Part shown: positions 40,312 through 57,613 of the stretch, piece by piece
How the letters are laid out: each line of letters starts with the position of its first letter
How positions within the stretch are numbered: position 1 is the first letter of the stretch
Source of the DNA: an uncultured Chloroflexia bacterium
GTDB taxonomy: Bacteria > Chloroflexota > Anaerolineae > JAAYZQ01
Reading direction: 5' to 3'
Assembly: GCA_963700285.1 (NCBI GenBank)
Contig: CAVOXA010000001.1
Location: forward strand, 640,001 to 704,000
DNA: 64,000 bases
Position numbers and translations under genes: made by a program
Notes under the pieces: generated by a model
What the model saw: the letters and a program-made list of their open reading frames with translations, nothing else
Told to the model about the DNA's origin: nothing
Database searches by the model: none

Positions 40312-42210
40312 CTACATGGCAAGGGGCATCTTCGGGTGGCTCTTTTTTTGGTTTTTTGGGGACGTGCGCTCATACTGAGCGATGTCGAGTGATTCGAGCT
40401 TTTCTTGGGTCGGTATGCCATTGGCATCCCAGCCCCGCTCCACATAATAGTCGTCCAGTACGCGATCCAGCTCAAAAACCTCCCCCTGAATGGGGCCGGC
40501 AGGCATGGGTTCGAACATACGTGGTGCCAGGGTATCATCGGCACGGGTGAAGCCAGCCTTGGTCAGGAAGAGTCGCTCCAGAGTATAGACCCGGTCGGCC
40601 GCCTCCAGCAGGCTCTCTGGAGTATAGCCAGCACCGGTAGCTTGGTTGACCATCTCGGTCAGACGAGTAGGTGCGTACCTGTTCGCCGTGTCCAGCGTGT
40701 ACCGGATGGCGACAAAGACGCACAGCCCCGCGGCATCGATGATGGCGAAAAGATCCTGGAAGTACTTGACCAGTGCCGCCTTGCCCTCGTAGGCCAGGCC
40801 ATCGATCTTTTCTCCGACGCCAAAAAGCTCCATGTACGCAGTATCTCCGGCCATGTGTGAAGCGCCGATGTTGGAGGTTGCGTACAGAAGGCCCATGCCC
40901 TTGAGCCCGCGGGCGTCGTAACTGGGGAACTCGAGCTTTTTGGCTGTCATTGACATCTCTGGGTGGCCGTATTTGTGCGCCAGACGCCAACTGCCTTCCG
41001 CGATGTCACTGCCAAACCCTTCCCGCGTCGCTGTGCGACGGATCATATCGAGCAGGCCCTCGGCATCGCCAAAGGGCAGGGGTCGTCCGACCTGCTTCTC
41101 CGTTAGAATGCCCTTGCTGTACATCTCCATGGCACAGGCGACCGTCAGTCCAGTGGATATGGTGTCCAAGCCCAGCTCATTGCAGAGGTAGTTGGCCTTG
41201 GTGATGGCGGCCAAGCTGTCGATGCCACATGCGCTGCCCAGAGAGCCGATACTCTCGTATTCAGGCCCCTCACCTCGTCCGGCAAACTGCTCGCCCCATT
41301 CTTCGGCTCTGACCTCGGTCAGACGGGCGCAGGCCAGGGGACAGGAGTAGCAGCCGCTATGCCGGATCAAAAAGTTATCCTTGAGGAACGGGCCGTTGAT
41401 CCTGGGCGTGCCCTCGAACTGGCCAAGCTGGAAGTTGAAGGTGGGGAAAACTCCCGCTTCATGGGTTACGTCGGGCACGTAGGATGTGCCATAGATGCGC
41501 ATCGTCGCACCCTGTTTGATGTCAGCTGCCAGCTGCTGGTTGGATTCTCGTACCACGGAACGTAGGGCCTTGGCGTCATACAGCTTGGGCTTTAGACCGC
41601 CTCGTACAGCCACGGCCTTGAGTTTCTTGGCGCCCATCACGGCCCCTACCCCAGAACGAGCAGCTGCCCGGTGCTTGTCGTTGATAATTGCGGCAATGAG
41701 CGCCAGGTTTTCGCCCGCAGGACCGATGCAGGCCACGCTGGCGTCGTTGCTGGTCTCGGCTCGAACGGCATCGTCGGTTTGGTGGGTATCCAGCCCCCAC
41801 AGGTGGGCCGCCTCGCGCAGTTCAGCCCGCCGTTCATCGACGTAGAGATAGACGGGCTTATCAGCCTTCCCCTCAAAGATAAAGAGGTCATAGCCCGAGC
41901 GCTTCATCATCGTAGGGAAGGTGCCGCCCGAGTTCGAGTTGGACAGCGCGCCGGTGAGCGGTGACTTGGTGACTACCATGTAGCGGTTGCCGGTCGGTGC
42001 CGGGGTGGAAGTCAGTGGCCCGGTGGCCATGATGAGCAGGTTCGAGGGCGACAGGGGATCGGCCTGGGGATCCATGCCCTCAAGCAGGTACTTGATCGCC
42101 AGACCACGCCCGCCGATGTATTTTTGGGCTTCAGCCTCAGGAATAATCTCCTCGCGGATGGTGCAATCGGAAAGGTTAATGCGCAGCAGTCTTCCGTGCC
42201 AACCGTACAT
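40312..42210 (-). CDS. Aldehyde:ferredoxin oxidoreductase family (tungstopterin)
   Basis: GGRGL, KSPLTG, CIGPAGENL, RSGVGAVMGAKKLKAV, CxxCxxxC, EGPEYES, GLDTIS. Confidence 0.95.
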   Translation of the reverse strand: MYGWHGRLLRINLSDCTIREEIIPEAEAQKYIGGRGLAIKYLLEGMDPQADPLSPSNLLIMATGPLTSTPAPTGNRYMVVTKSPLTGALSNSNSGGTFPTMMKRSGYDLFIFEGKADKPVYLYVDERRAELREAAHLWGLDTHQTDDAVRAETSNDASVACIGPAGENLALIAAIINDKHRAAARSGVGAVMGAKKLKAVAVRGGLKPKLYDAKALRSVVRESNQQLAADIKQGATMRIYGTSYVPDVTHEAGVFPTFNFQLGQFEGTPRINGPFLKDNFLIRHSGCYSCPLACARLTEVRAEEWGEQFAGRGEGPEYESIGSLGSACGIDSLAAITKANYLCNELGLDTISTGLTVACAMEMYSKGILTEKQVGRPLPFGDAEGLLDMIRRTATREGFGSDIAEGSWRLAHKYGHPEMSMTAKKLEFPSYDARGLKGMGLLYATSNIGASHMAGDTAYMELFGVGEKIDGLAYEGKAALVKYFQDLFAIIDAAGLCVFVAIRYTLDTANRYAPTRLTEMVNQATGAGYTPESLLEAADRVYTLERLFLTKAGFTRADDTLAPRMFEPMPAGPIQGEVFELDRVLDDYYVERGWDANGIPTQEKLESLDIAQYERTSPKNQKKSHPKMPLAM

Positions 42211-42243
42211 GAGTGTCGCCTCCTCTTGATTTTTCGTCTGTTC

Positions 42244-42486
42244 CTAGCCCCCGCCTACGGCGGGAAAGACAGCCAAAATGTCGCCCTCGTTCAGAACTTG
42301 ATCCCACTGCGCGTGACTGCCGTTGAGCAGGAAGGTGAAGGCATCATCCACCGGGATCGGCAGCTCGGCCAGGATGTCGCCTACCTTGTAGCCGAGTGGG
42401 ACGTCGTAGCCATAGCCTGCCTGAAGGTCGTGGTCCTGAGGCAGATAGCGGCGATAGCCAGCCAACAAGCGGACAGTAATTTGCAT
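42244..42486 (-). CDS. MoaD/ThiS sulfur carrier
   Basis: Ubiquitin-like, ends FPAVGGG; adjacent to AOR. Confidence 0.9.
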   Translation of the reverse strand: MQITVRLLAGYRRYLPQDHDLQAGYGYDVPLGYKVGDILAELPIPVDDAFTFLLNGSHAQWDQVLNEGDILAVFPAVGGG

Positions 42487-42493
42487 CGCGCCC

Positions 42494-43267
42494 TCAAAGC
42501 TGCAACTGCTGATAGCCGCTCTCAGCCAACGGTTCGATGCACCGGGGGTCGTCGTTGCCGGGGCGATTGACGAGATGGCTCACGGGGAAAGCCTCCATCT
42601 CCTCAGGTGGATAGGCGCGCAGGAGGGACTGGAGCTGCTCTGTGTCCTGGACCCTGGGATCGAGCCAAAGATCGTAATCTCGGGGATGCAGGATCACGGG
42701 CATGCGGTTGTGCAGGGGACGGAGTAGGTCGTTGGGCTCGGTAGTCAGCAGGGTACAGGACTCGATGATCGTACCCTTTCCGGAGGGATCCGAAGGGTTG
42801 TCAGCTCCACTCCAGTACTCCCACAGCCCGGCAAAGGCAAAGGGCCGCCCGTTGTGGAGACGGATGTAGAAAGGTTGCTTGCCTTGCTCGACCTGCTGCC
42901 ACTCGTAGAAGCCATCTGCCACGATGAGGCAGCGCCGTCGCCGGAAGGCGGCCCGAAACGCAGGCTTCTCAGCTACAGTCTCGGAGCGGGCATTGATCAT
43001 GCGCGCTCCGACTTTGGGGTCCTTGGCCCAGAAGGGGATCAGGCCCCAATGTAGCAGGGCCAACTCGCGAACCATATGGTCAGTTCCAAAAGACGCGTCT
43101 TCTTCAAATGACCATGTGTCTCCCTCCGCAGGCGGTACCACGCGTATCGCCGCCACCGGTTGGGTTGGGGCGATGTTGTAACGCGGCTTCATGTCTGGGA
43201 TCTCGGGCAGGTTGAACTGTATGGCCAGATCTTGTTCTGGGTCGGTTAGAGTGAATCGTCCACACAT
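42494..43267 (-). CDS. SOS response-associated peptidase (SRAP/HMCES, abasic-site protection)
   Basis: N-terminal MCGRF, RYNIAPTQ, WGLIP, NARSET, DGFYEW, HNRMPVIL. Confidence 0.95.
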   Translation of the reverse strand: MCGRFTLTDPEQDLAIQFNLPEIPDMKPRYNIAPTQPVAAIRVVPPAEGDTWSFEEDASFGTDHMVRELALLHWGLIPFWAKDPKVGARMINARSETVAEKPAFRAAFRRRRCLIVADGFYEWQQVEQGKQPFYIRLHNGRPFAFAGLWEYWSGADNPSDPSGKGTIIESCTLLTTEPNDLLRPLHNRMPVILHPRDYDLWLDPRVQDTEQLQSLLRAYPPEEMEAFPVSHLVNRPGNDDPRCIEPLAESGYQQLQL

Positions 43268-43610
43268 GCTTGTCTCACTTCCTTCCGGAGGACCCACGAC
43301 GGGGTCGCACAAATCACAGGTATTCCAGACCGGGTATCACGGCGAACCCGTCTGCCGCCCATGGTTACAGAGCATAGTATGGCACAATCTGGCTGCAAAG
43401 TCAAGGCAAACCCGTGGGGGCAAGGCGTGTGCTGCCCTGGAGGAATGCCCCTTGTCTTCACGGGGTTCAGCGCTTTGTTCGAACGGGAGGCCCACTGGAT
43501 CGCATTGGTGGCGTCCCGATGAGCCATTTAGGCACAGCGGTTCTGTTCAACGACCTGACCATGCAGGTGGTACAAAATAGAGCAATCGCTCGAAGCAGGT
43601 GGTGTCCAGC

Positions 43611-45164
43611 TCAGTGGCTTTTGGTCATGGCTGACCGGATCAGTTCCTGCTTGAGATCCCACAGACTTTGGGTCAGTGAGACATGGTAGACGTGGGGGTT
43701 CATGAGACGGCGGACGCCTGGGTCAAGCCGATGTACGTCGGCCTGGCGTCCCCGGCGCATCTGCTCGATGGTAGGCAGATCGTAGACGAGCTTACCCTCC
43801 TGCAGGACATCTACAAGGAGCGGTTCGATCTCTGCGACCTCCTCCTGCGTCAAGCATCGGTACTTGGCATGGTTCGAAGGGTGGTGCAGGGTGATCTGTT
43901 CCATCTTCCGGGGGTCCTCGTTATCGAGGCTCAGCAGGTCAGCCGTAGCCTTGCCGCGCCGGTCGTACACCCGCCAGATGTGCTTTTGCCCGGGGTTGGG
44001 GGTCTTGGCCGAAGACTCGGATACCTTGATTGCCGGTAACCATGTTCCCGAGTCGCGTACGGCAACCAGTTTGTAGACGCCGCCCAGCGCCGGCTCGCCC
44101 CAAGATGTGATGAGCCGCGTTCCCACGCCGTACACCAGGCGTTCAATCAGATGGTCGGGATCCACGTCGTAGCGAGGCGCCTCGTGGCTGATCTGGGTGA
44201 TGATCTGGAGGATGACCAGCTCGTCCAGGTTGTTAGAAAGAACAATCGCGACTTTTGGGAAGCCCGCGCTATTCAACATCTTTGCCACTTGGATGCTCAG
44301 ATAGGCCAGGTCACCGGAGTCGAGGCGGATGCCCACCGGCTCGTGGCCCTGGCGTCGCAGCTCTTCAAAAACCTGGATGGCATTGGGCACGCCACTCTCC
44401 AGGGTATCAATCGTATCCACAAGCAGCAGGCAGTCGTCGGGATACACGCCAGCGTAGGCGCGAAATGAATCCAATTCGCTCATGCCCAGGCTCATGAACA
44501 CCTGGACCATGCTGTGGGCATGGGTTCCCTGGGGCATATAGCCCAGTACGTGGGAAAGACCCACGTTGGAGCTAAAGTCTGCTCCACCGATGAGGGCGGC
44601 TCGCGCCCCGGCATTGGCTCCTCTCGCGTGCCCCCGGCGCAACCCGAACTCCAGCATCAAACGCTGCCGACCGCTTTCACGAATGCGCGTTGCTTTGGTG
44701 GCGATGAGGGTCTGGTAGTTGAGGTGGTTCAGGAGCGAGGTCTCCAGGATCTGAGCCATGGCCAGGGAGCCCTGGACTATGGTCAGCGGTACGTTGGCGT
44801 GGACCACGCGGCCTTCGGGGACGGCGCGCATTGTGACGGACTCGAATGTGCCGTTCTTGCGCAGCCAGTTCAGGAAATCGCTGGCAAAGACCCGCTTGCC
44901 GCTTCGACCTTTCTGGCTGCGCAGGTAGTCGATGTCCTGGGCGCGAAAGTGGGCCCTCTGCATCCAATCCAGGAGCCACTCCAGGCCTGCGTTGATGCAG
45001 TAGCCCGCCTTGTGTGCTCCATAGTCGGGATAGCGCCGGAAAAAGTGGTCAAACTGTGCTTGTTTCTCGTGCAGCCCTGTCCTGTAGTAGAGCTGGGCCA
45101 TGGTGAGCTGGTACTGGTCAGTGAAGAGGATGCCCTCGACTGTCTTGCGGTCCGATTCTCTCAT
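43611..45164 (-). CDS. pncB: Nicotinate phosphoribosyltransferase
   Basis: [42 protein letters not shown]. Confidence 0.93.
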
Positions 45165-45232
45165 GGCTGGCTCTCCTGCGGTAGCCGACTGTCCACCACA
45201 AACAGGGCGCGTGTTTGGGTGTCTGCTACGTG

Positions 45233-45589
45233 CTACTCGCTGTCTGCCCTGGCGCGCAAAAGGTCGATGGTCTCAAAGGCATGGCGCAGGTGGGGAATAA
45301 CAATGCTTCCGCCAACCACCAGCGCCACGTTGAGGGCTTCGTACAGCTCTTCATCGGAAAAACCAGCGTCAACGCATTCGATGAGGTGATAGTCGATGCA
45401 ATCATCACAGCGCAGCACGGCCGAGGCCACCAGGCCCAATAACTCCTTGGTTCTGCCGGTCAGTGCGCCATCCTTGTAGGCGTTGGTGTCCAGGTTGAAG
45501 AAACGCTTAATGCCCAGGTGACCGGCTGTTAATATGCGCTCGTTCATCCGTCTGCGATAGGCTTGAAAGTCGTCAATGCGTGTGGTCAC
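45233..45589 (-). CDS. Carboxymuconolactone decarboxylase/AhpD family protein
   Basis: [27 protein letters not shown]. Confidence 0.88.
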
Positions 45590-45699
45590 GGTAGCCCTCT
45601 CCCAATAGGTTGTATTCCTTGCTGACGGGCGTCGAACTCGATACGTATTGTGCGATGCGTACCCGCGCAATGCACACTTTACGTACTATGAGTCACGAA

Positions 45700-46452
45700 T
45701 CAAGCTTCTTGGACTCTGTCCAGCGGGCAAGTTGGCGGCATAGCGCGCTTGTGGGCTGAGGTGGCGATCATGTGCTGGACCCTGTTCAGAAGTGTGGGGT
45801 CCAGGTCGCTGATTTCATGCGCCTCGATGGCGGCCAAGCTTCGGTCTAGGTCATCATAGGTGAGGCCCATTTCAGCCTCATCGGTCTGACCTGCCCATAG
45901 CCCAGCTGTGGGCGGTCGCTCGATGATGGGCTGGGGGACCCCAAGATATCGGGCTAACAGGCGCACTTGCCACTTGTACAGCTTACCTAGGGGCTCCAGG
46001 TCGACCCCGCCGTCGCCGTATTTTGTAAAGTAGCCAATCTGGAGTTCGCTCTTGTTTCCTGTGCCGGCTACCAGGTAGCCGCGCGTCTGCCCTAGGGCAT
46101 ACAATGTCGCCATTCGCAGCCGGGGCTTGATATTTGCCTGGGCCATATCCGTTACTCCGGGTGGCAGCGCGACCAGCAAGGCTTCGTAGGGCGCAGTCAG
46201 GTCCACTGTAACGGTCTTCAAGTGGAGGGCATCGGCCACCAGATGTGCCATCTCGCTGTCCTCTGGCGCGCTGTTACAGGGCATCAGGACGCCCAGCACG
46301 CCATCGCCCATGGCCCTTTGGCACAAGGCGGCTGTGACGGCGGAATCGATCCCGCCGCTCAAGCCGACGACGTAACCCTCCGCGCCGCTATTCTGGGCAT
46401 AGGTGCGCAACCACGTTGTGATCTCATCAGCTACTCTGCTCATGTCGTTCAT
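45700..46452 (-). CDS. nadE: NH3-dependent NAD+ synthetase
   Basis: GLSGGIDS, NIKPRLRM, GTGNKSE..GYFTKYGDG, PTAGLW.GQTDE. Confidence 0.95.
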   Translation of the reverse strand: MNDMSRVADEITTWLRTYAQNSGAEGYVVGLSGGIDSAVTAALCQRAMGDGVLGVLMPCNSAPEDSEMAHLVADALHLKTVTVDLTAPYEALLVALPPGVTDMAQANIKPRLRMATLYALGQTRGYLVAGTGNKSELQIGYFTKYGDGGVDLEPLGKLYKWQVRLLARYLGVPQPIIERPPTAGLWAGQTDEAEMGLTYDDLDRSLAAIEAHEISDLDPTLLNRVQHMIATSAHKRAMPPTCPLDRVQEA

Positions 46453-46484
46453 CGCATCCCACCTTTTCTACGATTTCCACGGTG

Positions 46485-47927
46485 TTACAATGTTCTGATA
46501 AAAGCTTCTCCGCAGGCCATCAAATCTGCATAATCCTCAGGCGGAGTAAGTCTAGTCAGTAGTTGGCCAGTATGGCGGCCCAGAACCTCGCCCGCTAGCG
46601 GAGAACCCTGATCAAGCCATTCTTCCAAGACCAAGTGGGGCAAGATGTCGCTGCGAAAGTGAGCGGTTCGAAAGAGCTTCAGCGTCTGTTGTGAGGTCAG
46701 AAAATCCCCACCAGGTCCTGCTTGAGCGATCTCGTCCAGCTTTACCGAGCTATCGTCCAGGGCGAAGCCTTGAGCAAAGAGTCGGGCCTGCTGGATGACG
46801 TCATTGGCATAGACGGCAATGGCAGGTGAAAAGGCCAGAGAGCCCAGATTGTCGCCGACAAAGGGGGCCAGTCCAACCTTGCTCATGCAGCTTAGTAGGT
46901 GGTTCATCCATTGGTGGCCGGCGGCGATGATGTCGGCTCCCCAGCCCAGACCGCTCCCTGAGGTGCCGCAATGGGGCAGGCCATAGTGGGACATCATCTC
47001 CGCGCAGGCCAGGCCAACCAGGTAGCTTCTTGGAGCGTAAAAGCTGCCAATCCCCTTCATGTCAAAGAAGGCTGGAAGGCTGCCCAGGATGATGGGCGTA
47101 CCCTCTAGCATCAGTTGACTGAGGGTCAACCCTGCCAGCAACTCGGCGTTCAGGAGGGCGAGCGCGCCTCCGGGAGTGATCGGCGTCGTCGCGCCGGCCA
47201 TCCCATAGTTGGAATAGATAAAGGGCAGGCCCCGCTCTGTGGCCAGCCACATCTTGTCGACCGTGCCTTTGTTGATCACCAGGGGGCTGATGGGGTTGAA
47301 GTAGGGGATGGTGAACGGGTTCGAGGCCAAATCTCCGTGTAGCTGCTCCAAGAGATCCAGCACCGGTGCGAAAGCATTCTCGTCTGAGACCAAGATCACC
47401 AGTGGTTTTGTGGTGTTGGCTGTCATCTCCAAGGTGGCATACAGATCTGACTGGTTCGGCGGGACGTCCTGGATGATGCCCACGGTGGAGATGACGTCAA
47501 AGCTTGGCAAAATGCCTCCAAGCCGCACCGTGGACTCCATGTGCTGCCGGGTGAAGGGCATCACTGCCTCGGTTTCCGGGTCCTGGTAGTAGAGTGCGGT
47601 CACGCCGATGCCAAAACGAGCCTCCCCTGGCAGGCAAAAGGCCAGGTTCCCCCGCCGATCATAGATGTCGACGGCTGCAGGTGCCCTTTCCAGAGCCCAC
47701 TCTACCAGTTCGCGGGGGATACGGACGTATTCACCTGCAATGGCTGTGCTCCCGGCGGCCTGGCCAAAGAGCTGCCGGGCTCGTTCAGAGTCCATGCGGA
47801 CTCCAATGGAGGCAAGGATCTGCAGCGAATAGTCGTGAACCTGCTGCATCTGGTCTTTGTCCAAGATGGTGAGGTTGGGTCGGACCATCAAGGGGTTGCT
47901 GGCGCTAGGTCTGTCCATGGGTGACAA
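46485..47927 (-). CDS. Trimethylamine methyltransferase (MttB) family, non-pyrrolysine
   Basis: NTTKP, NPISPL, GATTPITPGGALALLNAE.LAG, EMMSHYGLP, GPGGDFLT; no in-frame amber codon. Confidence 0.88.
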   Translation of the reverse strand: MSPMDRPSASNPLMVRPNLTILDKDQMQQVHDYSLQILASIGVRMDSERARQLFGQAAGSTAIAGEYVRIPRELVEWALERAPAAVDIYDRRGNLAFCLPGEARFGIGVTALYYQDPETEAVMPFTRQHMESTVRLGGILPSFDVISTVGIIQDVPPNQSDLYATLEMTANTTKPLVILVSDENAFAPVLDLLEQLHGDLASNPFTIPYFNPISPLVINKGTVDKMWLATERGLPFIYSNYGMAGATTPITPGGALALLNAELLAGLTLSQLMLEGTPIILGSLPAFFDMKGIGSFYAPRSYLVGLACAEMMSHYGLPHCGTSGSGLGWGADIIAAGHQWMNHLLSCMSKVGLAPFVGDNLGSLAFSPAIAVYANDVIQQARLFAQGFALDDSSVKLDEIAQAGPGGDFLTSQQTLKLFRTAHFRSDILPHLVLEEWLDQGSPLAGEVLGRHTGQLLTRLTPPEDYADLMACGEAFIRTL

Positions 47928-48041: not shown

Positions 48042-48548
48042 TTAGATGCCTGTGATCTCGCTGCGGCGTTCCATCAGGATGACATCGCGCCAAACGCCAT
48101 GCATTTGGCCAATTCGGTGTCGACGCCCTACGAGTCGAAATCCACAGGTCATGTGCAGGGCGATGCTCGCCACGTTTTCGGGAAAGATCCCGGCCTGGAG
48201 CGTCCAAATGCCCTCGCGTTCCGAAGCCCGGATAAGGTTCTGTAGCAAGAGTGTACCCAAGCCCTGGCATCTCGCCGCCTCGGCCACATAGACGCTGACC
48301 TCGGCAACACCGCCATACACGCATCTGGTGGAGACACCGCTTAATGCCGCCCAGCCGGCGACCTCTCCTCCAGTCCTAGCCACCAGCCTGCAGGCTCGTA
48401 AGTGACTGCGGTCCCACTCTTTCCAATGAGGTACGTCAGTTTCAAAAGTGGCATGGCCGGTAGCGATGCCTTCCTTGTAGATGGCCTTGATCGCGTGCCA
48501 ATCCTCAACCCTCAACTCTGCAATGGTGACGCCCATGGTACTCCCCAT
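48042..48548 (-). CDS. GNAT acetyltransferase (YncA/phosphinothricin/ArsN-like)
   Basis: EGIATGHATFET, AEVSVYV, IWTLQAGIFPENVASIALH, WRDVILMERRS. Confidence 0.9.
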   Translation of the reverse strand: MGSTMGVTIAELRVEDWHAIKAIYKEGIATGHATFETDVPHWKEWDRSHLRACRLVARTGGEVAGWAALSGVSTRCVYGGVAEVSVYVAEAARCQGLGTLLLQNLIRASEREGIWTLQAGIFPENVASIALHMTCGFRLVGRRHRIGQMHGVWRDVILMERRSEITGI

Positions 48549-48580
48549 TCAATCGCCCGGCCGTCGGTTCGGGCGATTGG

Positions 48581-49075
48581 TCAGGCCCGAATACCGTACT
48601 CGGCCAGCGAATCATCCAGGAATCGCTGCCATACCGCGTTTGGATGCCAGATCCGGAGCAGATCCTTTTCGGCCGTTTCTTGGGACACGCCGAGCCAGAT
48701 GACGCGGTAGAGGTAGACGAAAACCGAGACCCGCATATTCATGACACAATGGACAAACACTCGCTTGCCACGGCACCTGGCCATCACGTCGAAGAACTGC
48801 TCAAGGTTCTGCGCCGTGGGGCGCTCCCATAGGACAGGGATGTGGACGTAGAGCATTCCCGCCCCGGCAACAAGCCGCTGCTCGTTGGGCAGCGCGTTGG
48901 AGGAATCGGGCATGGCCAGGTTCACGACGATGTCATAGCCTGCCGCTCTAACGTCGGCAAACTGGGAAGGTGCGGGCTGTCCCGCCGTGCCAATCGTATC
49001 TGAAATGGCGAGATAGTTGAGCACGTCCTCCAAGTCTGGTGATGGCATTGGCTGCCTCCTATCTTGATCCTCCAT
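48581..49075 (-). CDS. Protein tyrosine phosphatase-like protein (DUF442/Blh-type)
   Basis: TAGQP, VVNLA, YVHIPV, VFVHCVMNMRVS (Cx4R). Confidence 0.82.
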   Translation of the reverse strand: MEDQDRRQPMPSPDLEDVLNYLAISDTIGTAGQPAPSQFADVRAAGYDIVVNLAMPDSSNALPNEQRLVAGAGMLYVHIPVLWERPTAQNLEQFFDVMARCRGKRVFVHCVMNMRVSVFVYLYRVIWLGVSQETAEKDLLRIWHPNAVWQRFLDDSLAEYGIRA

Positions 49076-51398
49076 CCTTCCACAGGCCGTCCCGTAGCTG
49101 CACGCCGAAGCGAGCTAGGCTTTCCTTCGCCTCCGCCAGCCTGTCTGTTGGGACGACGGCCAGCGTACGATGGGCCGCCGGGAAGGGGGTGAGAAGCTGC
49201 TGCAGGTCGGCATTCTCTCGCAACTCATCCAGGGCGCCCGGATCGCTGAATTCGATGAGTGAAAGGGTTTCCACTGCGGCATTGCCATAGTAGCCGCCCC
49301 AGGCTTTGACTTGATCGACAAGGCCCCCGGGCAGCGTCCCCCGGTGCAGTTTGCCCAATTCGTCCAGTAGGCGGGTCGCTTTGATTTTGTTCCCTGCGGC
49401 GCGGCGCACGGACCTGGGACTTAGCTTCCACATACCATCAGGCGTCTCTTTGGCCAGCCTCGAGAGCCTGCCGCGTAGATGCAGGCTGGGGCAAGCGTGG
49501 ATGGGGCGGATCGTTCCATCTTCCTCAACGATGACGCTGTCATCCGCCGACTCTGGCTCGGCGCCGGTGACTGCTGGAAACAGTCCCTGGCCAACCAGTT
49601 GCGCTATCAGCGCTTCCTCGCCACCCGCCTTGAGCAGCGCCACTTGTTTTGACAGCCTGCGGGCCATGTGCTTGCTTAGCTGAGGATCAGCCACCAGTCT
49701 GCCGAGCAGATCGCCATCGACCGCCTGAAGAAGGCTGACGCCGGTACGGAACACGATCCGTTCGTGCTGTGCGCCCCACTCTTTCAGAGATCGCAGCACG
49801 TTCTGCGGCAGAGTTGCGCCGATTTTCTGCTCCAAAAAGTGGAGTATTTGTGTCGTCTCCATGCCCAATTGTTGGGCGCGGTAGACTGAATCCCGCGACA
49901 GGCGGTATTCAAAGGCGCCCCGGTCAGCCTGCTCTCTGTCGGCGAACGAGTCCAGGCGTGCCAGCCATTCCAGGGGGACCGGACCAATGGCTATCACCTG
50001 GAAGTTGGGCTGGAGCACCAGCCTGCCCGTGCCCTCCTCAGGAAGGGCAGCCGGGGTTCGTGCTTCTGTGGCAGACAGTACTTCCTTGCCTGCCCGAGTC
50101 AAGCGAAATGCCTGCCACTGGCCCAGGTGGTAGCCTAGGTCGACGAGGCCAAGTTGGTGCAGAACCCCGGTGACCGCGCTTTCTACAAAACTCTTCTCAA
50201 AGCCGTTGAGCTTTCGGATCAACTCCTGGGTCGAGCCATAGTAGTAGGAACCGCTGTGACCATAATACCAGTTGCCTCGGTACGTCTCAAGATTGAGGCG
50301 ATTGGCAAACAAGAAATCTGGGTCCTGGTCTTGGATCGTCTCTAGGATATTATCCAATTCGTGCCAGACGCCAGGTGGCTGCGGCCGGAGGCAGGCCAGC
50401 AGGCTTTCCTTCGCGTGGCGGGGGCGGGGGTCATAGTCAGCCGCCCCTCTTAACCAAGGTTCTGCCACGCCAAGCTGTGACCACGCATCCAGACAGGCGG
50501 CCAACTGCCTGGATAGCGACCAACTCCAGTAAGGAGGTACTCCTACAGGGTCCTCATCGGCTGGACGTAACTGGCCCTCTTGTCTGCGTACCAGATCCAA
50601 TTTCTCCAGGAGCAAGCGGAGCAGGTACAGCCGACCGGTCTCGTCCTCGCGCTTGGCGTCGTCCACTAGAGGATCGGGCAGCAGCAGAGTCTGGTTGATC
50701 GCCTTGAGCCAGCGTTTGCCTACGAGACCACCTTTGAGTAGGGACACCTCGTGACGCCGTACAAAGTCCCAGTAAAGGTACAGGTCCCGCAGCAACAGGG
50801 CCGCATCGCCGCTCTGTACCTCAGTCGGGTGCCAGTCGGGTGCCTGCGGTGGAATCGGCTCCGGCTGCGGCAAGGTCTTTCGGATGATTTCGGGTATATG
50901 CAGCGTTTTGCCGGGATGGAATTGGAGTTTGTAGGACGTGCCGCTGCTGGAAAAGGACTCTTCCCGGCTGAAGACCAGGCCGCGATAGGTCAGCCGGGCA
51001 ATCACATCTTCAAACACGCGCGAGTCCCCACGATAAGGCTGTCCTGCGTATCCTTCTGCATAGGGCACGCGAAGATAGCTACGGCCATGGCTCTCAGTTC
51101 GAGGTGCAGTAGCCGCTAACCCTGCCCGGATCACCTCGCGCTTCAAAGTCCTCGTCGAGATCGTGCCGCCGTGTAACAGCAACCGATCGAGGACGGCCCG
51201 CTCGCGCTCGTCGAGCCGGTCGAGGGAGTCCCGGATCCGCTCCTCGGCAAAGTACTCAGCCTGCATCTTGGAGAGGACCTCTGATTTTGACAGCTTTTTC
51301 CCTTTTGGGTCTGTGACCCGCAAGCCGGCGGCGTCCGCCATCTCCCACAACGTGGTAGAGTGGTACGCATCAAGAAGGGTCCGGATCTCGTCGGCCAT
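49059..51398 (-). CDS. Helicase-associated domain protein (Helicase_C_3 / p52-Tfb2-like)
   Basis: LHQLGLVDL..FRLTRAG winged helix, then LVLQPNFQVIA..LDSFA..YRLSRDSVYRA..LPQNVLRSLKEW; a second degenerate copy lies at the C-terminus. Confidence 0.8.
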   Translation of the reverse strand: MADEIRTLLDAYHSTTLWEMADAAGLRVTDPKGKKLSKSEVLSKMQAEYFAEERIRDSLDRLDERERAVLDRLLLHGGTISTRTLKREVIRAGLAATAPRTESHGRSYLRVPYAEGYAGQPYRGDSRVFEDVIARLTYRGLVFSREESFSSSGTSYKLQFHPGKTLHIPEIIRKTLPQPEPIPPQAPDWHPTEVQSGDAALLLRDLYLYWDFVRRHEVSLLKGGLVGKRWLKAINQTLLLPDPLVDDAKREDETGRLYLLRLLLEKLDLVRRQEGQLRPADEDPVGVPPYWSWSLSRQLAACLDAWSQLGVAEPWLRGAADYDPRPRHAKESLLACLRPQPPGVWHELDNILETIQDQDPDFLFANRLNLETYRGNWYYGHSGSYYYGSTQELIRKLNGFEKSFVESAVTGVLHQLGLVDLGYHLGQWQAFRLTRAGKEVLSATEARTPAALPEEGTGRLVLQPNFQVIAIGPVPLEWLARLDSFADREQADRGAFEYRLSRDSVYRAQQLGMETTQILHFLEQKIGATLPQNVLRSLKEWGAQHERIVFRTGVSLLQAVDGDLLGRLVADPQLSKHMARRLSKQVALLKAGGEEALIAQLVGQGLFPAVTGAEPESADDSVIVEEDGTIRPIHACPSLHLRGRLSRLAKETPDGMWKLSPRSVRRAAGNKIKATRLLDELGKLHRGTLPGGLVDQVKAWGGYYGNAAVETLSLIEFSDPGALDELRENADLQQLLTPFPAAHRTLAVVPTDRLAEAKESLARFGVQLRDGLWKDGGSR

Positions 51399-51399
51399 G

Positions 51400-53739
51400 T
51401 CACACCTGGTCGGTCTGCTTGGGAGTGTAGCCGGCCTTTTCCAGCTCGGCCCGCAGAGGATCCACGGCATGAGGGCTGATGATTACCAGCCGGGGCGACA
51501 TTTCGGCGATCAGGTACTTGTCCAGCGACGTTACCGCCTTCGCCTCAGCCAGGGCATAGTCATCGCCGAACTCGATCACCGTAAGGCCTTTGTAGATGCG
51601 AACCTGACCGTAGGCCTGCCACCATGACGCTAGTTGGCTGCGGATGGCGTCGGGCATCGGAACCTGTAGGAATTGCTCCCAGCCATCCAGGATCTCGGAC
51701 AGGGCGGTGCCACTCTCGAAGGCTTCGTAGGCGGCCTGGGCATCCAGCCGATACTCAAAGTAATCGGCTTCAGCGATCGTTAGGCGAGCGATCTTGTCCA
51801 GCAGGCTGTGAGCCTGGGCGCTAACAGCCGAGGGCCTAAGGGTGACACAGAGTCCGTCCGCATTTACCGCTCCAGCCCCTGGTACAGCCGGGACCTGATC
51901 GACAGCGTGCCGTGGTGGGGGAACGGACTCTGTACGATCCAGATACAGTTCGCCCAGGCCCTGAAGGCGAAAGGCTGCCAGTTCCCCGCCTTCGAAGAAA
52001 AGGTCGGCCAATCCCAGCCAGTGCAAGGGTCCAGCGATGATCTGCCGGACAAAGTTCCCCTGGGCCAGGTCCCAGTGTTGTACGTTGCCCTGAAGCAAGG
52101 GTTGCCCATCCCTGGTCAGCAACCAGGCGCCTGCGCGCTGGCGTTGGGGGATCGAATAGGCCCGATAGTAGGGATCCTGTACCGTCTGATCAAACCTGGG
52201 CCAGATGGTGCGCAGTAGCTGGAACAGGTCCTTCAGAGCCACCCATTCTCCGTCTGGCAGGGTAGCCAGCGTACGAAGGACCAGTTGGCGAAACTCGACC
52301 AGATCCTTCCCCAAATTCATGGGCTTGTAGTACAAGTAATGGCAGGTACGCACGAAGTGTAGGGGCTTAACCGTCCGCAGTACCTCCCACAGCGCGCTCC
52401 AGTTCCACATGGTCAGGTAGATCCGGGCCAGAAGGGCCCGCTGGGCCAGTTCATCTAGGCGCAGGAACTGGGCCTTCACCTCGGGCCAGACGGTCGTTGG
52501 GCTGCCGGGTTGAAACACGCCCGTCGCTGCCAATAGGGAAAAGACAAACTCCAGGCGTGCTTCCCCATCGTCTCGCCCGCACTCGGCTCCGGCGGCCAGG
52601 GGAGCCAGGCGTACGATTGCCTCGTCGGGCAGGGAACGCCCTGGTGGTGGGAGCGTGAGCGTCAAGTCCGCACGATTCCTGATCTGCCCGCTCTTTTGCA
52701 TCTGCGCGAGTTCGACCGGGTCATAGTCCCACCCCTCTAGATCGGGGAGAAACCGTTCCAGGCGGGGGCGGGGCATGGGCGGCCGCAAGCGTACAGGCTG
52801 TTGCTCCAGCAAGACCGCGATCTGGTTGGTGGTACGGACCAGGGCGTAAGGATCAGCCAGGCAAAGTCCTGTCCCGGCAGACTCTGTAGGCAGATTGGTC
52901 GTCATCTCCCCTAATAGGGGGGGGAAATGGCGGACAAGGGCAAAGGGAATGAAATCCTCCTTGTCGCCATACGCATCTCTGGCATAGCCGGGCAGCGCCA
53001 AGCCCGTTTCCCACAGATGGCGCGTAAAGGTGGGGGCCACCTTGTGGTTCCCAGGCGCTCTCCATGCTCTGGCTATTTCCTCCAGGTCTTCGGCTCGTAC
53101 CCCAAAGCTCCCACTCAGGAGGAGCATTGCCCGGAGCATCAGCCGATGTTCCTCAGGCAGGTCCTGGATGGCCTGGGCGATCTCTTCAGGGTTGACAATG
53201 TACTTGGCAACCTGCTGTATAATATCCGCCTTGCGCGTCCCCTTCAGCCGCCAACCCCGGTTCTTGGCCATCCGACGCAGATCCTGAAGCTTTACCTGGG
53301 AGAGCCATGCTTCCAACTGCTCTTGATAGACGCGCTGGCGCTCTTCCCAGGACACTGCAATCCAGCTGGGTGTTTCTTCAGGACGATAGGTGGGTAGGGG
53401 ATCAACTGCTGTGACTTCGATAGGGTATTCTTTGGAAAGGGGCACAGCACCTTTCGGAACAAACTCCTCCGGCGTCGATATCCACTTGAGCAGGACTGCG
53501 CCCACGTGCTTGCAGTAGCCGCTCCAATCATAGGGGCAGGTGCAACGTGCGTCAATGCCGCCCGCCCCGACCTCGATTTCCACTTCGTACAGTCGGCTAC
53601 CGCGCACCAGGGCAGTGAGGGTCTGGCCCACACGCACCGGATTCCGAACCCGGGCTACGTAGCCTTGGGCCCGGCGCAGGCTCTTGGCGTTCAGTGGACC
53701 GCGAATGTCGGCCTCTCTGAGAGTTTCCAAAGTAGGCAA
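51400..53739 (-). CDS. SWIM zinc finger plus helicase-associated (Helicase_C_3-like) protein
   Basis: SWIM ARCTCPY...CKHVGAVLL; PLHWLGLADL..FRL; YRLDAQAAYEAFESG..MPDAIRSQLASWWQAYGQVRIY. Confidence 0.8.
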   Translation of the reverse strand: MPTLETLREADIRGPLNAKSLRRAQGYVARVRNPVRVGQTLTALVRGSRLYEVEIEVGAGGIDARCTCPYDWSGYCKHVGAVLLKWISTPEEFVPKGAVPLSKEYPIEVTAVDPLPTYRPEETPSWIAVSWEERQRVYQEQLEAWLSQVKLQDLRRMAKNRGWRLKGTRKADIIQQVAKYIVNPEEIAQAIQDLPEEHRLMLRAMLLLSGSFGVRAEDLEEIARAWRAPGNHKVAPTFTRHLWETGLALPGYARDAYGDKEDFIPFALVRHFPPLLGEMTTNLPTESAGTGLCLADPYALVRTTNQIAVLLEQQPVRLRPPMPRPRLERFLPDLEGWDYDPVELAQMQKSGQIRNRADLTLTLPPPGRSLPDEAIVRLAPLAAGAECGRDDGEARLEFVFSLLAATGVFQPGSPTTVWPEVKAQFLRLDELAQRALLARIYLTMWNWSALWEVLRTVKPLHFVRTCHYLYYKPMNLGKDLVEFRQLVLRTLATLPDGEWVALKDLFQLLRTIWPRFDQTVQDPYYRAYSIPQRQRAGAWLLTRDGQPLLQGNVQHWDLAQGNFVRQIIAGPLHWLGLADLFFEGGELAAFRLQGLGELYLDRTESVPPPRHAVDQVPAVPGAGAVNADGLCVTLRPSAVSAQAHSLLDKIARLTIAEADYFEYRLDAQAAYEAFESGTALSEILDGWEQFLQVPMPDAIRSQLASWWQAYGQVRIYKGLTVIEFGDDYALAEAKAVTSLDKYLIAEMSPRLVIISPHAVDPLRAELEKAGYTPKQTDQV

Positions 53740-53743
53740 GGTA

Positions 53744-55546
53744 CTACACTCCGCCTGTCGTGAGCCTGGGATGTGGATCAGTTGCGAAAGACTCGGACTC
53801 GACTAGCTCGCCTGCAATCGTCGCTGGTTCATAGTCCGCCACCTCGTCGTCGTAGAGGATGGTGTAGCGGTAGCCCTGTTCGGTGAGAAAGAGCTGGCGA
53901 TTGGCGCTATAGTCCTGGTCGATGGTAGTCCTTGCTGACCAGCGTGTAAAAGTGGGCCAGCAACCCATTGTGCTTGGGGCGCAAGATGCGGCCCAGACGC
54001 TGAGCCTCCTCCTGGCGGCTGCCAAAGGTCCCGCTGATCTGGATCATGACGCTGGCATCGGGCAAGGTCAATGGCGAAATTTCCTACTTTGGAGACGATC
54101 AACCGGCTCAAAGTTCCCTCTCGAAACTCCTGATAGAGCTTGCGCCGCTCAATCACTGCCGTCTTGCCGGTGATGACCGGATATCCGTACTTTTCGGCCA
54201 CTTGCTGGAGTTGTTCCAGGTACATGCCGATGATGAGCACCTGGTCGTCCGGATGCTTGGCCAACAGCTGGTCCAACACCTCGAATTTGCGCGGGTTCTC
54301 AGCGGCGACCCGGTACTTTTGCCTCGGCTCGGCCAGGGCATAGTCCATCCGTAGTTCGGGGGACATCGGGATGCGGATCTCAGTCACCTCGGCGGTGGCG
54401 ATCCAGCCCTGTTTCTCCAGGTCTTTCCAGGGCACATCGTACTTCTTTGGGACCGATGAGCGAGAACACGTCGGTCTCCCGGCCATCCTCCCGTACCAGC
54501 GTGGCCGTCAGCCCCAGACGGCGGCGCGCTTGGAGTTCGGCCGTGATGCGAAAGACAGGGGCGGGCAGCAGATGCACCTCATCGTAGATGATCAGGCCCC
54601 AGTCCCGCTCGTTAAAGAGCCCAAAGTGGGGGAACTGCTCAAGCAGAGGTACGCCAGGTTTCTGTGTGCCGCGCTTGCGGTAGGTCATCGTCTGGTAGGT
54701 CGAGATGGTCACCGGCCGGATCTCCTTGCGATGACCCGTATATTCGCCGATCTGATCCTCGGTCAGCATTGTTTTGTCCAGCAGTTCGTCGATCCACTGT
54801 CGCACGGCGACAGTGTTGGGTGAGAGGATCAGGGTGTTGCACTGCATTTGCTCCATGGCCGCCATGCCGACCATCGTCTTGCCCGCCCCGCAGGGGAGCA
54901 CGATCGACGCCCGAGCCGCCCTGGGCTGCGCCATCAGCATAGTAGATTTCGGCTGCTTCCTGCTGGTAGGCTCGCAGCGCAAAGGGTACTCGGCGCCAGA
55001 CGATATCGGTCGCAGGCGGATCTCCAGCCCTTCGCCATCTACATAGCCAACCAGGTCCTCGGCCGGGTAGCCGATTTCGACCAGGGCATGTTTGATGTGG
55101 CCCCGCTGGGCCGGATCCACGCGCAAGGTGAAAGCATCGATGGGGGCCAGGATGTAGGGGGCGAGGCGCTTGTGCCGGGCCAGTTCGGTGACAATCAGCC
55201 TCCTCATCAGAGACAAGTACCAGATCGCCATCCTGCCGCATCAGCTTGACCCGGCCATAGCGCGAGATATAGTCGACAATGTCGACCCGTACGTTGCCGG
55301 GGACAGGGTATTTGCTGTATCGCTCCAACCCCTCCAGGATGGCCTGTCCGCGGCCAGCCCGGCAGATGCCGCGTTCCAGAGCGAGAGCGGCGTGATCCGA
55401 TAGGTGTGAACGTATTCGGGGCTTTTTTCCAGTTCCGCAAAGCGAGCCAGCACGTCTCGCGCATTCTGATAGAGGTCGTTGTCGACCTCCAGCAGGACGC
55501 TCTTGTCTCCCTGGACGATAAGTGGATTCTCTGGATTATAGGTCAT
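53744..55546 (-). CDS. DNA repair helicase XPB (ERCC3/Rad25-like), multiply frameshifted in this sequence
   Basis: [90 protein letters not shown] across several frames. Confidence 0.9.
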
Positions 55547-55580
55547 GTTGAAAAGTCACTGGCAAAAAGGCTGACTTGTA

Positions 55581-55609
55581 ATCATAGCGCAAAACCGGGC
55601 CGGTGGCAA
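55581..55609 (-). promoter_or_regulatory. Promoter of XPB operon
   Basis: TTGCCA-17-TATGAT on minus strand. Confidence 0.5.
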
Positions 55610-55792
55610 ATGTGCTTGTCCACGAATCTGAAGGCTGTAACAGGGGCGCGTGGTTGGGGCAGGACTCGTGTCGTCATCCGGGCCATCGAGGGAAAGGGAA
55701 TTGACGCTTGGGCTTATGCGGACTATACTGGCCTTGGTCTGTCTGTATCCCAGGGCAGAGGATCATATTCTACCCACGGAGTCACGTCCTCT

Positions 55793-57613
55793 ATGCCAGA
55801 ATTGATGCCCCGCCAGGATAGCCTTGTACTGTACAAAACGCGCCCGGCTCGAGTCATACGTGCCGGAAAAAAGCTCGAGATCGAGTTGGGTGGGGGTGAG
55901 ACGCTAAAGGTCCGCCTCAAAGACGTTGAGGTATTGCACCCGGGTCCGATGGGCGATCTAGACCAACTTCAGCCGCAAACGGGAGAGGTAGAGACGGCCT
56001 GGGAGCTACTGGCCGGGGCCAAGACTGATCTGGCCGAGCTGGCTGAGCTGGCCTTCGGCGACTATACTCCGGCCAGTGCCTGGGCGGCCTGGCAACTGGT
56101 GGCCGAAGGACTTTTTTTCCACGGAAGTCCTGGAGCGATCGTGGCCCATTCACCGGAGGATGTGGCCCGCGAGCAGGCGGCCCGACAGGCCCGGGAGGCG
56201 GAGGAGCAGGCATGGCAGGGATTCCTCACTCGATTGCGCACCAGAAACGTCGGGCCCGAGGACGGACGCTACCTGAGGGAAGTGGAGGAAATCGCCCTCA
56301 AGCAGAGGGCCAAGAGTCGCGTGCTGCGGGAGTTGGGGCGCGCCGAAAGCCCAGAGGTAGCCCACGCTCTCTTGCTCGAGGTGGGCTACTGGGAGGTTAC
56401 AAGAGATCCCTACCCCCGGCGGCTTGGCCTGCCCGAGTCTGTGGTATCTCTGGAACTCCCAGATCTCGCCAAAGAAGACCGGGTCGATCTGGCCCATCTG
56501 CCAGCCTTTGCCATCGACGATGAGGGCAACCAGGAGCCGGATGACGCGCTGAGCTTGGAGGGGGACCGCCTGTGGGTTCACGTGGCCGACGTGGCGGCCC
56601 TGGTAGGCCCTGGCAGTGAGATTGATCTGGAAGCCCGGGCTCGAGGGGCGACTCTGTACCTGCCTGAGAAGACAGTACCCATGTTGCCCATGCAGGCCAT
56701 CGAGACTTTGGGGCTCGGCTTGGCAAAAGTATCCCCGGCCCTGTCCATCGGCCTGGATCTGAGTTCCAGGGGTGAAATCGGTTCCGTCGAGGTAGTGCGA
56801 AGCTGGGTCCAGGTCACACGTCTGTCCTACCGTGAGGCCGACAGCCGGCTGGACGAGGAACCCCTGAAAAGCCTGCACTCCCTGGCGCAAAGGAACGAGG
56901 CGCGGCGGTTGAAGCAGGGTGCCATAGCTCTCAACCTTCCCGAGGTCAAGGTGCAGGTCGAGGGGGAGGCTGTGAGCATCCACCCCCTGCCCCCACTCAG
57001 GAGTCGGGATCTGGTGACGGAGGCGATGCTTCTGGCGGGAGAGGCCATCGCCCAGTTTGCAGCAGAGAGGGCTATCCCCATCCCGTACGTTACGCAAGAT
57101 CCACCGTATTCCGACGAAAGGCCTCAGGACCTCGCCGGGATGTACGCACTGCGGCGCGCCTTCAGACCCAGCCAGCCCAGTACGGTGCCCGGGCACCACG
57201 CCGGGTTGGGCCTGGAAACCTATGTCCAGGCCACCAGCCCTCTGAGGCGCTACCTGGATCTGGTTGTACACCAGCAGTTGCGGGCCTATCTGCGGCACGA
57301 AAGGCTGCTGGACGCCCAGGAGATCCTGGAGCGGGTGGGAGCAACTGCGGCAGTGGCTGGCAGCGTGCGTCAAGCCGAGCGGCTGGCCAGGCGGCATTGG
57401 ACACTGGTCTACCTGATGCAGCGGCCAGGCTGGCGCGGGGAAGGGATCCTGGTAGAGCAGCGTGGTTCCCAGGGCACGGTACTCATCACCCAGCTAGATC
57501 TTGATGCCCAGGTACACTTGCGCCAGGACCTGCCTCTGAACAGCCCCGTCGATCTGGTTCTGGCCGAGGTCAAGCTGGCGGAGCTTGCAGCCCACTTTCA
57601 GGTCGTGCGCTGA
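55793..57613 (+). CDS. RNB-domain exoribonuclease (RNase II/R family)
   Basis: AIDDEGNQEPDDALS, VHVADV, RGATLYLP, EAMLLA, HAGLGL..YVQATSPLRRYLDL. Confidence 0.93.
   Translation: MPELMPRQDSLVLYKTRPARVIRAGKKLEIELGGGETLKVRLKDVEVLHPGPMGDLDQLQPQTGEVETAWELLAGAKTDLAELAELAFGDYTPASAWAAWQLVAEGLFFHGSPGAIVAHSPEDVAREQAARQAREAEEQAWQGFLTRLRTRNVGPEDGRYLREVEEIALKQRAKSRVLRELGRAESPEVAHALLLEVGYWEVTRDPYPRRLGLPESVVSLELPDLAKEDRVDLAHLPAFAIDDEGNQEPDDALSLEGDRLWVHVADVAALVGPGSEIDLEARARGATLYLPEKTVPMLPMQAIETLGLGLAKVSPALSIGLDLSSRGEIGSVEVVRSWVQVTRLSYREADSRLDEEPLKSLHSLAQRNEARRLKQGAIALNLPEVKVQVEGEAVSIHPLPPLRSRDLVTEAMLLAGEAIAQFAAERAIPIPYVTQDPPYSDERPQDLAGMYALRRAFRPSQPSTVPGHHAGLGLETYVQATSPLRRYLDLVVHQQLRAYLRHERLLDAQEILERVGATAAVAGSVRQAERLARRHWTLVYLMQRPGWRGEGILVEQRGSQGTVLITQLDLDAQVHLRQDLPLNSPVDLVLAEVKLAELAAHFQVVR

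Follow-up and report, generated by a model that had tools for sequence, protein, structure and literature searches.

Does a bacterial XPB helicase come with partner subunits of the kind that serve its eukaryotic counterpart in the transcription factor TFIIH? The question is raised by three adjacent genes in a 64,000-nucleotide stretch of DNA from an uncultured Chloroflexia bacterium (positions 640,001 to 704,000 of contig CAVOXA010000001.1, assembly GCA_963700285.1; hereafter the window), which belongs to contig C1 of a 7.05-Mb genome that is 89% complete. Read along the minus strand, on which all features of the cluster lie, the order is an XPB gene for an ERCC3/Rad25-type superfamily 2 (SF2) ATPase (53744..55546), a 4-bp gap, a TTG-started gene for a 779-amino-acid (aa) protein that we call P1 (51400..53739), a 1-bp gap, and an ATG-started gene for a second 779-aa protein, P2 (49059..51398), followed by a DUF442/BLH-like open reading frame (ORF) overlapping P2 and a GNAT gene. 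The gaps and protein lengths agree with those of an earlier reading of the locus, made from the bare sequence (the original prediction), which had proposed a three-subunit DNA-opening machine. We consider it moderately probable that the cluster encodes a three-protein bacterial counterpart of the XPB–p52–p8 motor lobe of TFIIH, with P2 in the place of p52 and the C-terminal tail of P1 in the place of p8. That XPB, P1 and P2 form a real and conserved system is well supported by homology and linkage; we infer that P1 and P2 regulate XPB, and likewise the pathway in which they would do so.

The first step is the identity and integrity of XPB. Its sequence features assign it to the XPB/ERCC3/Rad25 helicase family: the pieces of the gene match NF045503 (positions 1-60, 105-354 and 351-480) as well as PF13625, ResIII and PF16203, Walker A, DEVH, RED and motif VI are all legible in them, and the domain layout comprises an N-terminal domain (NTD), a DRD-like segment and two RecA domains. 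The intact 597-aa orthologue of a congener (genome G001) carries all features of the family (N-terminal domain, SF2 motifs, RED and ERCC3_RAD25_C). The original prediction was thus right that an XPB gene is present, but in this assembly it is not one ORF, being split by seven 1-2-base insertions relative to the congener gene (near 55341, 55198, 54992, 54906, 54446, 54063 and 53928), with which it shares 92% DNA identity. Because all seven insertions are missing from contigs, mostly 90-99% alike, that come from three independent DNA runs, the breaks are likely assembly errors. A true XPB pseudogene in this strain, within a decaying operon, would fit the seven frameshifts within the 1.8 kb of XPB, given that the 4.7 kb of P1 and P2 show no net frameshift relative to the congener. 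It is nevertheless highly improbable, as every break is an insertion absent from the independent-run contigs, small indels relative to the congener cluster also at 42-47 kb of the window, and the XPB pieces are still 83-94% identical to the congener protein. A profile search over six frames of this genome, at its 89% completeness, found no second XPB. The dense patch of 1-2-base indels (window 42000-47000) includes ORFs resembling nicotinate phosphoribosyltransferase and NAD synthetase, which may also carry assembly errors, and a UvrB-related helicase match elsewhere in the genome (G000:C1:1310951-1312710), spread over several frames with internal stops, is probably error-broken.

What, then, are the two partners? 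Aligned as profiles, P1 and P2 are paralogues (HHalign 100%, E 9e-46, 547 columns), and the motifs that the original prediction quoted for them are all present in the translations. P1 consists of a SWIM domain (residues ~1-90; 53470..53739), a SAP/HeH-like helix pair (residues ~150-182; 53194..53292), a p52-like winged-helix region, a clutch of the XPB-NTD fold (residues ~617-712; 51604..51891) and a p8/Tfb5-fold tail (residues ~713-775; 51415..51603). P2 begins with the SAP/HeH pair and the winged-helix region and continues with two clutch-plus-tail modules, module 1 (clutch 457-546, tail 547-610; 49569..50030), which aligns by sequence with human p52 302-449, and module 2 (clutch 620-704, tail 705-770; 49089..49541), which has no p52 counterpart. 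The clutch and alpha/beta tail originally ascribed to each partner therefore exist in both, but P2 has two such modules, and the tail motif quoted for it was that of the second. Pfam recognizes SWIM and PF13625 (XPB-NTD) in P1, and two PF13625 stretches with a sub-threshold Tfb2 match in P2. The SWIM finger that had been predicted in one partner is borne out in P1 by a Pfam match above the cut-off (E 2.5e-4), by at least 90% conservation of C66, C68, C76 and H78, and by a fold match of the P1 N-terminus to a chain of a ZSWIM8 complex (VIA Z 12.7, root-mean-square deviation (rmsd) 2.0, 97 aligned); it is optional in the family, and 51 of 67 long P1 ORFs have it. For the SAP/HeH pair the sequence support is moderate: 16 of 78 N-terminal pieces match Pfam SAP at E<=0.1 (best 2e-5), 12 match Rho_N, and the helix pair matches a human SAP-type entry at E 0.008.

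Structural models of P1 (predicted local distance difference test (pLDDT) 90.6, predicted template modelling score (pTM) 0.85) and P2 (pLDDT 93.2, pTM 0.79) suggest that both partners resemble p52 along its length. For P1, all 16 Foldseek matches at E<=0.001 are p52/Tfb2-sized TFIIH chains (best E 3.3e-8, ~650 columns), while the top 13 of 38 matches for P2 are such chains (best E 1.5e-9) and the remaining P2 matches under 0.001 are to additional chains of p52 and XPB. The alignments with p52 extend over 580-680 columns, with low whole-chain TM-scores (~0.2-0.3) and high rmsd, as expected for hinged domains; in the same way, P2 45-607 aligns in order with p52 27-461 (VIA Z 13-14) at an rmsd of 10-24, because the domains are hinged differently. 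The p52 N-terminal half (6tru_D) matches both P1 (Z 9.4, rmsd 4.1, 155 aligned) and P2 (Z 6.9, rmsd 4.0, 151 aligned), in keeping with the winged helix originally read in each. P2 457-546 matches the XPB NTD closely (Z 14.3, rmsd 1.6, 90 aligned), as does P1 619-712 (6ro4_A; Z 12.0, rmsd 2.3, 93 aligned), and the P1 tail 713-770 matches 3dom_B over 55 of its 58 residues (Z 6.4, rmsd 2.0); a VIA Z under 8 may by itself reflect a common arrangement, and the weight of these matches comes from the collinear domain order.

At the sequence level, the partners share an identity of only 10-18% with p52. The 13 best PDB matches of the P2 profile are XPB and Tfb2/p52 chains (E 3e-5 to 0.033), with matches of the P2 clutch to both Tfb2 and p52. 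Against a Pfam Tfb2 (PF03849) gathering cut-off of 34.5 bits, P2 scores 19.3 (E 6e-4) and P1 has no match; one orthologue passes the cut-off, with 38.4 bits (E 9e-10). A p52/Tfb2-like character of both partners along the p52 length, with p8-fold tails, is thus supported by the models, as the original prediction of a structural likeness to p52 and p8 had anticipated. Its further expectation of neither a WYL domain nor a nuclease also agrees with our searches, which found no WYL family by Pfam and no nuclease family by Pfam or NCBIfam in P1, in P2 or in 21 related partner proteins; the C-termini of the two models are alpha/beta tails.

Are the three genes a system, or merely neighbours here? We examined the 77 loci that were best among 238 P2 relatives, a set that leans to close kin. 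Their gene orders are XPB-P1-P2 (56 loci), the same with an extra 610-aa paralogue (5), P1-P2-XPB (3), P1-P2 (8) and P2 alone (5). Eleven of the 13 loci with only P1-P2 or P2 are cut by a contig end, leaving 66 informative loci, in 64 of which all three genes are adjacent, while no other neighbour occurs in more than 5 of the 77. An even sample of 61 genomes of the class, the source genome included, tells the same story: XPB occurs in 25, the double-module P2 in the same 25 and in none of the 36 XPB-negative genomes, and a P1-type gene stands beside XPB or P2 in all 25. The three genes are together in 22 of these, XPB-P1 has P2 elsewhere in two (G035 and G223), and P1-P2 has XPB elsewhere in one (G227). 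The co-occurrence in other genomes that the original prediction implied is therefore found. At the level of the phylum, 50 of 151 genomes gave a PF13625 match; of 22 relatives from the same family, only 3 have a close P2 or P1-P2 locus.

The architecture of the partners varies among these loci. Naturally minimal P1 proteins of 281 and 308 aa, consisting of SWIM, clutch and tail only, stand directly before P2 (L033:7632-8477 and L123:3126-4052), and some P2 proteins are without the first 190 residues, so what is retained in every case are the C-terminal modules. In addition, the 610-aa clutch-bearing protein is a fourth, divergent paralogue on its own long branch, lying between XPB and P1 or before XPB in 5 of the 77 loci (L027:1843-3690, L028:13332-15179, L049:4178-6007, L054:3963-5798 and L109:262-2100), and two genomes hold two XPB genes and two P1-P2 pairs (G039, on C1, C36 and C58; G204, on C42, C25 and C16).

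One complex prediction combined residues 1-180 of the congener XPB, P2 395-775 and P1 548-779, with P1 as the scored partner. The score was 0.68 against 0.00 for the best of three controls. Of 157 solved complexes, 116 attained the mark for a pass, as did 2 of 215 mismatched pairs, counts that apply to this job only approximately. At least 78% of contacts are shared between runs, with a partner pLDDT of 67 or more. In the predicted interface, P2 544-613 meets P1 709-779, with strands P2 548-558 and P1 713-724 running antiparallel, so that the P1 tail and P2 tail 1 are predicted to be arranged like the p52 C-terminal domain (CTD)/p8 dimer. Interface positions are more conserved (0.79 and 0.77) than those elsewhere (0.65), a difference that buried residues inflate, and the most conserved parts are the tail in P1 (0.78) and clutch 1 in P2 (0.75). 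The confident contacts in this job involved no residue of XPB, of which residues 1-180 were included and not the RecA domains that p8 touches in TFIIH; a control that kept XPB 1-180 and P1 and replaced P2 scored 0.00, which, with the RecA domains outside the job, speaks neither for nor against a P1-XPB contact. A pairing of the P1 clutch sheet with the second clutch of P2 was also considered, and went unseen in the confident contacts bar a few (P1 667-679 with P2 502-509 and 634-640). The two partners, which the original prediction had rightly called paralogous, do not look like equivalent activators: P2 carries one module more, P1 occurs in naturally shortened forms, and in the model the P1 tail pairs with P2 tail 1 in the place of p8.

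With P1 and P2 as the modelled interface, one may ask whether XPB belongs to the complex at all. P1 and P2 could form a DNA-binding scaffold whose clutches pair mutually or with further paralogues, XPB being a loose client or being held inactive by P2 module 2 as a mimic of the XPB NTD and DRD. Consistent with such a scaffold, P1-P2 is the tightest link, found without an adjacent XPB in 2 of the 66 informative loci, in G227 and in several genomes of other classes; in a wider alignment the best PDB sequence matches of P2 module 2 are to XPB 95-196; single-module paralogues exist without XPB; and p52/p8 is described as also limiting the speed of XPB (PMC7708078). The double-module P2 and XPB nonetheless share the same genomes of the class, XPB stays with the P1-type gene in G035 and G223 while P2 is elsewhere, and HHalign scores module 2 closer to module 1 than to XPB. 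A tree of 68 modules, built by a quick method only, recovers each module type as one group and does not settle the order among groups or the origin of module 2. On balance we regard the scaffold as unlikely.

Returning to the TFIIH-like reading, the mechanism that we propose starts from XPB, in which the full set of SF2 motor motifs can be read along with the N-terminal domain. The p52 clutch of TFIIH pairs pseudo-symmetrically with the XPB NTD (PMC6422496), and by homology and conservation P2 clutch 1 would pack on the XPB N-terminal domain in the same manner. The P1 tail and P2 tail 1 are predicted to exchange strands into a dimer of the p52-CTD/p8 type, which in TFIIH is mediated by beta-strands of both proteins (PMC7708078). 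By analogy with p52/p8, which activates the XPB ATPase (PMC7708078), domains of P1 and P2 may cradle the second RecA domain of XPB and set its ATPase rate. The SAP/HeH pair, the winged-helix region and the optional SWIM would keep the motor attached to DNA or to a partner, as the rest of TFIIH does, so that translocation would open or remodel duplex DNA, and P2 module 2 may provide a spare docking site. The use might most plausibly be an accessory one in DNA-damage repair or tolerance beside UvrABC, and not basal transcription, which is disfavoured because the distribution is patchy.

Several observations weigh against this reading. XPB in TFIIH is reported to translocate only within the complete core (PMC7708078), and none of XPD, p62, p44 and p34 is a conserved neighbour within 5 kb across the 77 loci, unlinked homologues not having been searched for. 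The Tfb2-CTD/Tfb5 dimer has already been solved (3DOM), and the passing complex score may for this reason show likeness and not binding of this particular pair. p8 is nearly undetectable by sequence, the Pfam Tfb5 family matching 1 of 93 tail pieces (E 0.049), and the DRD-like segment of XPB is itself homologous to the three tails (HHalign 72-92%, controls under 2%); the label "p8-like" consequently rests on structure. The 25 XPB-positive genomes belong to 17 families, and related genomes do not count as independent. A single-module p52-like paralogue (~570 aa) was matched in 33 of the 36 XPB-negative genomes of the class, through weaker matches in which single-module coverage holds among the matches listed. 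Finally, UvrB is intact in this genome and signs of damage regulation are missing: upstream of XPB in 46 loci, the exact GAAC-N4-GTTC box occurs in none, and 7 have it with one mismatch against 2.9 in the background. Given the intact UvrB and the lack of an enriched SOS-type box, any repair role would be accessory.

In the source genome, the single-module paralogue is a 564-aa protein (L040:8882-10576; G000:C10, ~1120881-1122575) within a conserved neighbourhood of a RimO-type radical SAM protein, a MerR helix-turn-helix protein, DUF1232 and a GT2 glycosyltransferase, and its presence in XPB-negative genomes beside RimO, MerR and DUF1232 suggests that the p52-like fold does not always serve an XPB. 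Further one-module paralogues with an extension, in frames of ~710-770 aa, were seen in genomes of which some are XPB-negative (G037:C31, G196:C96, G220:C85, G029:C8, G218:C107 and G190:C85); a WYL tail in these is possible.

The homology of the tails with the DRD-like segment opens a broader view of the same proteins. The four clutch domains are mutually homologous as well (HHalign 97-98%), which, together with the homology of tails and DRD, shows that clutch-plus-tail and NTD-plus-DRD are one module. One could then suppose that a single two-domain unit, a clutch followed by a p8 fold, was used four times, as the NTD and DRD of XPB, once in P1 and twice in P2, and that XPB-P2-P1 is a self-sufficient miniature TFIIH translocase preserving the ancestral state of the eukaryotic XPB–p52–p8 lobe, with p8 derived from a second p52 paralogue by trimming to the tail. 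Natural P1 forms, from 779 aa down to SWIM-clutch-tail proteins of ~300 aa, display such trimming. A free p8/Tfb5 protein of ~70 aa was not found, the fold being confined to the fused tails of P1 and P2, with no conserved small neighbour of at least 70 aa in the 77 loci and no p8/Tfb5 chain in the PDB found by the tail profile. We regard this extended scenario as doubtful, although conceivable.

In which process would an XPB-P2-P1 complex act? The same complex might serve transcription by opening or remodelling promoter complexes or stalled RNA polymerase, and its SAP, winged-helix and SWIM domains would then bring it to DNA or to the polymerase. TFIIH XPB opens promoters (PMC13024598), no SOS-type box was found upstream of XPB in the 46 loci, and the operon is without a nuclease family by Pfam and NCBIfam among the neighbours in the 77 loci. 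Such a role appears distinctly unlikely when set against the patchy occurrence of the genes, in 25 of 61 genomes of the class and, as a close locus, in 3 of 22 same-family relatives, and against sigma factor and polymerase genes never being conserved neighbours in the 77 loci. Moreover, the bacterial holoenzyme opens promoters without an ATPase. Upstream of XPB in these loci the top enriched 7-mers are -35/-10-like words, whose enrichment was the only one seen; clear enrichment was found neither for a PafBC-type pattern nor for any of four consensus patterns of LexA or similar type. In the window, a sigma-70-like consensus (TTGCCA-17-TATGAT; 55581..55609), as a consensus match only, lies 35 bases upstream of XPB on the same strand. 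RNA run X16 yielded three short contigs on P2 and XPB, which do not demonstrate transcription.

A patchy distribution would also suit an accessory role in defence against phages or plasmids, with XPB-P2-P1 sensing or displacing DNA of foreign origin. PADLOC profiles align the P1 SWIM region with the N-terminal part of PDC-S62 (E 7e-8) and XPB with parts of the PbeA helicase, and a prokaryotic locus labelled 'Tfb2_Cas3Cterminus_WYL' is listed among CRISPR-linked systems (PMC10910872). These PADLOC matches concern generic domains only, covering 61 of the 566 profile positions of PDC-S62: no core protein was matched at full length, the hits being partial ones to SWIM and helicase, with none to P2. 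Furthermore, Pfam revealed no effector domain in P1, P2 or related partner proteins, and the recurring neighbours inspected are transporters and metabolic enzymes, none in more than 5 of the 77 loci. We therefore consider a defence function very unlikely.

The remaining genes around the cluster appear to be bystanders. The DUF442/BLH-like phosphatase-fold ORF (48581..49075, minus strand) overlaps the end of P2 by 17 bp and is likely co-transcribed, and the GNAT acetyltransferase (48042..48548, minus strand) has ArsN1a as its nearest match, below the cut-off. The original prediction had listed both behind the two partners; as members of the system we rejected them, since they are adjacent in 1 of 77 loci, that of the congener. 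Divergent from XPB lies an RNase II/RNB-family gene (window 55760-57613, plus strand), with a short shared intergenic region and facing promoter-like sites, which is adjacent in only 2 of 77 loci. Downstream of GNAT, a trimethylamine methyltransferase (MttB) family gene (window 46485-47927, minus strand) is unrelated to XPB-P1-P2.

How does this cluster compare with known systems? One parallel is with the Helicase_C_3 plus WYL proteins (class J; PMC6789036), which are likewise bacterial, non-enzymatic and marked by PF13625 or a Tfb2 label; P1 and P2 differ in having no WYL match and in models that end in p8-fold tails. A Tfb2 domain label for a prokaryotic locus is thus already in print (PMC10910872), and in the parts of these two papers that concern them, neither the Helicase C3+WYL proteins nor the labelled locus is linked to XPB or a TFIIH-like complex. 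A description of a bacterial XPB-p52 complex was not found in the literature searched, which covered few subscription papers, so that a prior mention is possible. Archaeal XPB-Bax1 offers another parallel, that of an XPB with a dedicated ATPase-modulating partner (PMC13024598), a modulation that P1 and P2 would exert by analogy. Bax1, however, is a nuclease that binds the thumb and HD2 of XPB, whereas P1 and P2 match no nuclease family and have p52 and XPB as their best folds.

Among bacterial XPB proteins (NF045503), the M. tuberculosis enzyme (PMC3353954) has the same family and domain layout. In 2012, homologues of p44 and p52 were stated not to be found in bacteria, and bacterial XPB was thought likely to act without a TFIIH-like complex (PMC3353954); in contrast, XPB here stands in tight linkage with two p52-fold genes. 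If P1 and P2 act as p52/p8, bacterial XPB, whose function a 2026 review still called elusive (PMC13024598), would gain regulatory subunits it was thought to be without, and missing regulators could explain why purified M. tuberculosis XPB unwound DNA only at large enzyme excess (PMC3353954). The locus thereby names candidate XPB regulators and a specific, testable three-protein architecture, and the finding that XPB NTD-plus-DRD and p52 clutch-plus-CTD are one homologous module bears on the evolution of the TFIIH motor lobe and of p8, the trichothiodystrophy subunit.

The closest counterpart overall is the XPB–p52–p8 lobe of TFIIH itself (human ERCC3/GTF2H4/GTF2H5, yeast Ssl2/Tfb2/Tfb5; PDB 6NMI, 8EBS, 6TRS and 3DOM). 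It differs from the cluster in having p52 and a free p8 in place of two p52 paralogues; the second clutch-plus-tail module of P2 and the SAP/HeH and SWIM additions are found on the bacterial side, together with a patchy, accessory distribution and no conserved XPD, p44, p34 or p62 neighbour within the range examined. Common to both are an XPB that includes the N-terminal domain, a partner that follows the p52 domain order of winged-helix region, XPB-NTD-fold clutch and p8-fold C-terminal domain (PMC6422496, PMC7708078), and, as predicted here by modelling, a strand-exchanged dimer of two p8-fold tails.

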